In this document: positions 33,147 to 33,910 of the stretch, one piece after another | Layout of the letters: every line of letters starts with the position of its first letter | Numbering within the stretch: the stretch's first letter is position 1 | Notes under the pieces: generated by a model | Databases searched by the model: none | What the model saw: the letters and a program-made list of their open reading frames with translations, nothing else | What the model was told of the DNA's origin: nothing | Assembly: GCF_003334355.1 (NCBI RefSeq) | Contig: NZ_QOWP01000036.1 | Strand: one strand, 5' to 3' | Source: Escherichia coli | GTDB taxonomy: Bacteria; Pseudomonadota; Gammaproteobacteria; Enterobacterales; Enterobacteriaceae | Length of the DNA: 33,910 bases | Position numbers and translations under genes: made by a program

Positions 33147-33520
33147 ACAAACAATCAGGGATGACACTGCTTGAAGTCTTACTGGCGATGAGTATTTTCA
33201 CCGCTGTTGCTCTGACTTTAATGAGCAGTATGCAAGGGCAACGAAATGCCATCGAGCGAATGCGTAACGAGACGCTGGCATTGTGGATAGCGGATAACCA
33301 GCTTCAGTCACAAGATTCATTCGGCGAGGAAAACACGTCCAGTTCTGGCAAAGAGTTAATAAATGGCGAAGAGTGGAACTGGCGCAGCGATATCCACTCA
33401 AGCAAAGACGGCACGCTTCTGGAACGCACCATAACGGTGACATTACCCAGCGGTCAGACAACCTCGCTTACGCGTTATCAAAGCATCGATAATAAATCCG
33501 GGCAGGCACAAGATGATTAA
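33143..33520 (+). CDS. gspI: Type II secretion minor pseudopilin GspI
   Basis: ORF 33104..33520 trimmed to the ATG at 33143 ([19 protein letters not shown]...), giving 125 aa; ATGA overlap with the gspH stop. Confidence 0.92.
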
Positions 33521-33833
33521 TCGCCAGCAGGGTTTCACATTGCTGGAGGTCATGGCGGCGCTGGCGATTTTCTCAATGCTTAGCGTGCTGGCGTTTATGA
33601 TTTTTTCGCAAGCTTCCGAGTTGCATCAACGCTCACAGAAAGAAATCCAGCAGTTCAATCAGCTACAGCGCACCATCACCATTCTTGATAACGATCTCCT
33701 GCAACTGGTCGCCCGGAGGAATCGGAGTACGGACAAAATCATGGTGTTGGGTGAAGAAGCTATTTTTACCACGCAAAGTCGCGATCCGCTGGCTCCTCTC
33801 AGTGAAGCACAAACCTTACTCACTGTTCACTGG
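33513..33833 (+). pseudogene. gspJ: gspJ (minor pseudopilin) 5' fragment, truncated at codon 107 by an IS insertion
   Basis: Prepilin motif QQGFTLLEVMAALAIF. The reading frame ends at a TGA (33834..33836) that coincides with the first bases of an IS-like terminal repeat. Intact GspJ is 195 aa as I remember it. Confidence 0.6.
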
Positions 33834-33910
33834 TGAACCGCCCCGGGTTTCCTGGAGAGTGTTTTATCTGTGAACTCAGGCTGCCAGATCATCGTTTCCG
33901 ATGGAAGCAT
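33834..33910 (-). mobile_element. Terminal portion (inverted repeat plus transposase 3' end) of an IS3-family, IS629/IS1203-like insertion sequence; continues beyond the window
   Basis: Sequence starts TGAACCGCCCCGGGTTTCCTGGAG..., a 5'-TG terminus and IR that I recall for the IS629/IS1203/IS3411 group. The minus strand encodes a protein C-terminus ending ...ASIGNDDLAA-stop directly inside the IR-proximal region. Confidence 0.6.
33876..33910 (-). CDS. IS3-family transposase (OrfB), last 10 codons only; partial
   Basis: Minus-strand frame ...A-S-I-G-N-D-D-L-A-A with TGA stop at 33876..33878, consistent with an IS629-like OrfB C-terminus as remembered. Confidence 0.5.
   Translation of the reverse strand, partial: ASIGNDDLAA

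Follow-up and report, generated by a model that had tools for sequence, protein, structure and literature searches.

Genes broken by IS629-type elements belong to the textbook genome dynamics of E. coli and Shigella, and the IS629/IS1203/IS3411 elements fall within the IS51 group of ISfinder. IS1203 and IS3411 are isoforms of IS629, whose sub-types differ by 4–5% and whose target duplication measures 3–4 bp (PMC3271280). The reference copy used here, from O157:H7, is 1310 bp long and flanked by a 3-bp duplication, CTT/CTT; its terminal repeats (TGAACCGCCCCGG...) agree with each other at 22 of 25 positions. In its transposase CDS, RefSeq annotates a pseudoknot and a programmed frameshift; this CDS is encoded on the other strand from the one matched by our sequence and ends 43 nt before the IS terminus. 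The interrupted gene, gspJ, encodes a protein that forms the pseudopilus tip together with GspI and GspK, and the chitinase-secreting type II system encoded next to rpsJ and bfr is presumably the one called T2SS-alpha. In K-12 the gspC-O operon is cryptic and repressed by H-NS, and it is thought to export the chitinase ChiA, as stated in PMC5797941, which cites Francetic et al. 2000.

Over positions 1–33834, the whole stretch of 33,910 nt analysed here (the window) is colinear with K-12 MG1655; these 33,834 nt contain 16 substitutions and no indel, and the sequence is 99.95% K-12-like. The genomic context of gspJ is also that of K-12 (gspAB and gspC-I upstream, near rpsJ), gspA and gspB being full length in the ORF list; the gene occupies the operon position proper to GspJ, with gspC–gspI directly upstream in the window and gspK-O following the 3' fragment on a right-hand contig (L031) of a related draft assembly described below. 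The ORF list gives for gspJ a frame of 107 aa at 33513..33836, closed by the TGA at 33834–33836, and 321 of the 321 nt from 33513 to 33833 (107 codons) are identical to the 5' end of the K-12 gene, which is intact and comprises 588 nt coding for 195 aa (WP_000610634.1). The alignment contains no mismatch over 33513–33834; past the breakpoint K-12 continues with TGG TAT CTG CGA, whereas the window reads TGG TGA ACC GCC. The T at 33834 is common to the IS and to wild-type gspJ (TGG TAT), and its origin is not assignable by sequence alone. The stop consists of the first three bases of the IS, and no foreign residue is appended to the GspJ fragment.

A first-pass annotation made from the letters of the window had already described the 107-codon gspJ frame with its TGA, quoted the sequence from 33834 (TGAACCGCCCCGGGTTTCCTGGAGAGTG), put the length of intact GspJ at about 195 aa and read a transposase tail, ASIGNDDLAA followed by a stop, on the minus strand. 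Each of these statements agrees with the ORF list, the sequence, the K-12 annotation and the translation of 33876–33908 (stop at 33876–33878), respectively, and the alignment with K-12 gspJ that it had proposed for locating the breakpoint places the first difference at 33835. Its central proposal, that gspJ is interrupted by an IS3-family, IS629-type element at the window edge, holds as well: the last 77 nt are identical at 77 of 77 positions to a known IS end, and the full-length GspJ proteins of K-12 and of E. coli PSS-12, the nearest complete genome, run on past residue 107.

The coordinates of the operon genes, of the gspJ fragment and of the IS segments are collected in Table 1. In intact GspJ, the Pfam N_methyl domain covers residues 3–28 and T2SSJ (PF11612) residues 58–172. 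The fragment keeps the prepilin leader with its cleavage/methylation motif (TIGR02532, 33.9 bits against a cut-off of 16.3, residues 5–27) and the N-terminal helix, whereas residues 108–195 are lost to the IS. Because its score against the NCBIfam gspJ model TIGR01711 (52.7 bits) stays below the cut-off of 64.85 and the model is covered only at positions 1–70 of 192, the complete T2SSJ domain is absent and gspJ is here a pseudogene, a non-functional member of its family. For annotation, this means that gspJ should be labelled as such, and the contig end as an IS boundary. A PDB sequence search with intact GspJ gave no match at E ≤ 0.001, the GspJ/EpsJ chains 3nje and 2ret appearing as weak matches at E ~0.01.

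Table 1. Features of the gsp operon and of the inserted element in the window
Feature	Position	Strand	Basis
gspC–gspI, upstream part of the gspC-O operon, all full length	26747..33520	+	ORF list, colinearity with K-12; boundaries as in the K-12 annotation
gspC	26747–27562	+	
gspD	27546–29498	+	
gspE	29508–30989	+	
gspF	30986–32182	+	
gspG	32192–32629	+	
gspH	32637–33146	+	
gspI	33143–33520	+	
gspJ 5' fragment, codons 1–107 of 195	33513..33833	+	identity to K-12 gspJ
TGG (gspJ codon 107), left copy of the inferred 3-bp target-site duplication	33831..33833	.	window reads CAC TGG, then IS; right-hand contigs L031 and L033 start with TGG
Stop codon (TGA) closing the truncated gspJ frame, formed by the terminal three bases of the IS	33834..33836	+	sequence, alignment to K-12
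Right end (last 77 nt) of a 1310-bp IS629/IS1203 element, remainder outside the window	33834..33910	-	77/77 identity to annotated copies
Right terminal inverted repeat (IRR), TGAACCGCCCCGGGTTTCCTGGAGA	33834..33858	-	22/25 match to the other end of the reference copy, TGAACCGCCCCGGAAATCCTGGAGA, with the element length set to 1310 bp
Transposase orfB 3' end (...ASIGNDDLAA, stop 33876–33878), cut by the window edge	33876..33910	-	translation

The segment 33834–33910 is 100% identical over its 77 nt (E = 1e-31) to sites annotated as 'IS3-like element IS1203 family transposase' or 'IS3 family transposase'. Matches to this segment occur in 4068 of the 5426 complete E. coli genomes, both chromosomal and plasmid-borne, the median genome having 3 such places. 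The coincidence of the gspJ truncation with an IS end is far beyond chance. Because the minus strand reads ASIGNDDLAA followed by a stop, as in the reference copy, it is the orfB/IRR end of the element that lies in the window, and the element is antiparallel to gspJ. Its terminus, TGAACCGCCCC, and the orfB end 43 nt from that terminus are those of known copies, and on its terminal identity, its 5'-TG terminus and its imperfect repeats the element is assigned to the IS3 family, IS629/IS1203 group. The 77 nt shared with IS629, IS1203 and IS3411 are too short to separate the sub-types, the first difference between copies being at offset 102. The same junction on an ENA metagenome contig (L004) runs through a complete 1310-bp element and stops at its last base; this element carries an orfA of 108 aa (HTH_Tnp_1) and an orfB of 295 aa (rve), the latter scoring 314.8 bits against the IS3 family transposase model NF033516 (cut-off 160), with orfA matching model positions 1–86. 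Compared with the O157 IS1203 copy it shows 49 differences in 1310 positions, beginning at offset 102, outside the window. We consider it very probable that a 1310-bp element of the IS629/IS1203/IS3411 group has entered gspJ between nt 321 and 322, just behind codon 107, in the orientation opposite to the operon, by simple insertion.

The two ends of the window deserve attention in this respect. Its left end falls in an rrn leader, 70 nt upstream of the rrnD 16S gene; positions 1–77, from this leader, are found at 7 places per genome, and the next 123 nt are found at 3. Since 77-nt repeats thus terminate both sides, the rrn leader on the left and the IS on the right, the window looks like a complete k=77 short-read de Bruijn contig stopped by repeats, which would imply that the IS is present in several copies in the source genome. 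The position of the IS at the very end of such an apparent contig, over a length that is a common k-mer size, also raises the suspicion that 77 nt of IS were misjoined to an otherwise intact gspJ. We regard such an artefact as extremely improbable, since a k-mer path into the IS needs reads spanning the junction, gspJ is split at this very base in two NCBI draft assemblies, and other pipelines arrived independently at the identical junction in at least three other samples.

These samples were recovered by exact look-up of the 107-aa product, which gave the same IS junction in at least three other places: L003 (SRR10357312), which shows no difference from the window along 10,349 nt and has each of the 13 SNPs covered there that separate the window from K-12, the contig L004 already mentioned, and L005 (SRR23081303). 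Among the 10 listed places with the exact product, IS sequence is present in these three only; the others are contigs that end at or near the same base without IS, two of them going on with the wild-type TA. The product matched 108 blocks in all, a number that overstates the frequency of the insertion. Some metagenome contigs stop exactly at the fork between wild-type and IS sequence (L011, for example, ends CACTGGT), and IS629 is described as excisable by the IS-excision enhancer; both observations would suit an insertion that is real and present in only part of the population, beside wild-type gspJ. For the window this is highly improbable, as it contains no sign of mixture and an isolate assembly normally takes the majority path. 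The junction occurs in none of the 5426 complete RefSeq E. coli genomes, the best coverage of the junction-spanning query being 85%. Likewise, no paper that names gspJ together with IS629 was found, and the survey of Shigella IS elements in PMC7373316 does not mention gsp.

The two draft assemblies give access to the sequence on the right of the element. In GCA_012531255.1, the left contig (33,666 nt) ends ...GTTCAC and shows no difference from the window along the 3,318 nt compared, and the right contig (L031, 7,844 nt) starts with TGG TAT CTG at gspJ nt 319 and continues through the 3' part of gspJ, gspK, gspL, gspM, gspO, bfr, bfd and chiA into tuf. In GCA_033742275.1, CACTG closes the left contig and TGG TAT CTG opens the right one (L033), so that the ends overlap by 2 nt (TG). 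In the window TGG precedes the IS, and the right-hand contigs begin with it, as would be expected of a 3-bp TGG target duplication in line with the published behaviour of IS629; the arrangement points to a simple insertion rather than a deletion, and a 4-bp duplication, CTGG, may be considered as an alternative. For the strain of the window itself, we infer the TGG duplication and the retained 3' half of gspJ from these other assemblies.

A different arrangement would be that the IS borders a deletion or rearrangement brought about by IS activity, with the gspJ 3' part, and perhaps gspK-O, no longer adjoining the other end of the element. The window ends 77 nt into the IS and leaves the far side outside, matching duplications accompany only 21 of 47 IS629 sites in O157:H7 (PMC3271280), and neither a contig nor a predicted product crossing the right junction was found in the JGI metagenome scan and the protein-product look-ups. 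The JGI scan for CCGGGGCGGTTCA N{0,6} TATCTGCGAAATCATACGCTC gave 0 matches, and as the left junction is absent from the same collection too, this result is uninformative. The look-ups concerned 29 predicted products, cut off at a contig edge, whose frames run out of the IS end and on into the 3' part of gspJ, designed for 3-bp and 4-bp duplications, two IS sub-types and 1–42 IS codons, and all 29 were absent from the protein collection by exact match. We nevertheless hold a deletion or rearrangement to be very unlikely: GCA_012531255.1, which has the haplotype of the window, possesses a contig running from the TGG at gspJ nt 319 on to tuf, and GCA_033742275.1 displays the same pairing of contigs. 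For these two assemblies, the TGG at the head of the right contigs, as assembled, rules out a large deletion. The 74-aa and 63-aa gspJ 3' products with internal starts were also tried as markers of the insertion and rejected, their look-ups giving sequencing-error contigs and other null alleles, and no IS.

In the simple insertion that we favour, and in keeping with the IS3 family, the element would have been copied out and pasted in by way of a circular intermediate, and target cuts staggered by 3 bp would have left TGG on both sides. Its far end, ...CCGGGGCGGTTCA, would then be joined to TGGTATCTGCGAAATC, with an expected right junction of ...CCGGGGCGGTTCA-TGG-TATCTGCGAAATC, and the 267 nt of the gspJ 3' part would be kept to the right of the IS, followed by gspK-L-M-O. 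At the junction itself, the sequence GTTCA-CTGG-TGAAC (33825–33838) is observed. Five nucleotides of the target that repeat the opposite IS terminus (...GGTTCA) lie 4 nt upstream of the insertion point and form a short inverted repeat with the IS end; a match of 5 nt is not beyond chance. As to the consequences, GspJ(1–107), deprived of more than half of the T2SSJ domain, would be expected not to form a GspI-J-K pseudopilus tip, and 1.3 kb of antisense IS would probably be polar on gspK-O. With both defects, the chitinase-secreting type II system would be non-functional. The mechanism holds nothing new, being the ordinary knockout of a gene by a known IS. The affected operon is silent in laboratory E. 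coli and missing or decayed in many strains; a 511-nt query made of the gspI 3' end and the gspJ 5' fragment is covered to at least 80% in only 3116 of the 5426 complete genomes.

The first-pass annotation had also spoken of an otherwise intact gsp operon, which is right for gspA, gspB and gspC–gspI within the window and does not extend beyond it. A gspK allele with the nonsense mutation Q40* (C118T) is present in PSS-12 (L030, 34594–35577, annotated as a pseudogene with an internal stop) and on the right contig of GCA_012531255.1 (L031, 263–1246). Since both genomes, which share the haplotype of the window, have this mutation, it is doubtful that the IS is the sole lesion of the operon, and gspK Q40* was probably present in the lineage before the insertion. 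More than 200 contigs encode shortened GspK products of the kind that this allele would give, some of these contigs being labelled Shigella dysenteriae 1012 or S. boydii 965-58. Because the operon is cryptic in K-12, where it is silenced by H-NS, and the lineage very probably had gspK Q40* beforehand, the insertion is most likely a neutral event in a decaying operon.

With regard to the origin of the DNA, the first-pass annotation had favoured Shigella or some E. coli lineage over K-12. The part excluding K-12 is upheld by the 16 SNPs and by the IS end, which is missing from the MG1655 record; as this record has only one matching place for the query including the IS end, K-12 lacks the element. 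A Shigella-labelled source is not needed, the best relatives and the matching NCBI assemblies being labelled E. coli, and near-identity to K-12-like E. coli argues against it, although the collections searched contain no Shigella chromosomes. The nearest complete genome, PSS-12, comes from human faeces in Ecuador and differs from the window by 2 substitutions in about 33 kb. Its gspJ is intact, and it has an IS1203 copy in dprA (L030, 3748–5057), at the equivalent of window positions ~4556–4559, with a 3–4-bp target overlap. As dprA is hit in PSS-12 and intact in the window (3605–4729), IS1203 has inserted at different sites in two close genomes.

The gspJ junction, identical in position and orientation, is found on two gsp haplotypes. 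The first, which carries gspK Q40*, comprises the window, L003 and GCA_012531255.1; the second, with an intact gspK, comprises L004, L005 and GCA_033742275.1 (L048/L033) and differs from the window at 11–13 sites in the ~7 kb left of the junction. PSS-12 represents the first haplotype with Q40* and without the IS in gspJ. This conflict between characters requires one of the following: independent hits, recombination of a short patch bearing the IS, excision of the IS in PSS-12, or recurrence of Q40*. It is conceivable, although in our view unlikely, that IS629 inserts preferentially at codon 107 of gspJ and, by extension, that commensal E. coli is under selection to lose the type II system, beyond simply tolerating its loss; more economical accounts of the pattern are the spread of a single patch with the IS by recombination and the removal of the IS from PSS-12 by excision. 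The junction could serve as a lineage marker.

At least five other, independent null alleles of gspJ exist in public E. coli assemblies, in which GspJ is likewise truncated in a K-12-like operon, by point mutations or a deletion and not by a mobile element as here. They include W107* (TGA and TAG), Q128* (C382T) and Q131* (C391T), the latter two at L050–L053 and L055, and a gspH-gspJ deletion in which gspH is joined in one frame of fusion to what is left of gspJ, its 3' part (L054, GCA_023244215.1). The TGG>TGA form of W107* (among L041–L047) is represented by one 41,229-nt contig in 16 samples and also occurs on two gsp haplotypes that diverge strongly. On 31 contigs the product has 109 aa and the C-terminal residues HWYL, and is probably R110*. 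The multiplicity of gspJ null alleles agrees with a relaxation of selection on the operon.

Five of the 16 differences from K-12 fall within 61 nt of gspE (29642–29702). None of them changes the protein, as PSS-12 agrees with the window at these sites and yet shares its GspE protein accession with K-12; the cluster may be a small recombination patch. The only Rfam match in the window is the ribosome-binding-site element of the alpha operon (RF00140, 102.7 bits, 13608–13719 on the minus strand), as expected upstream of rpsM.
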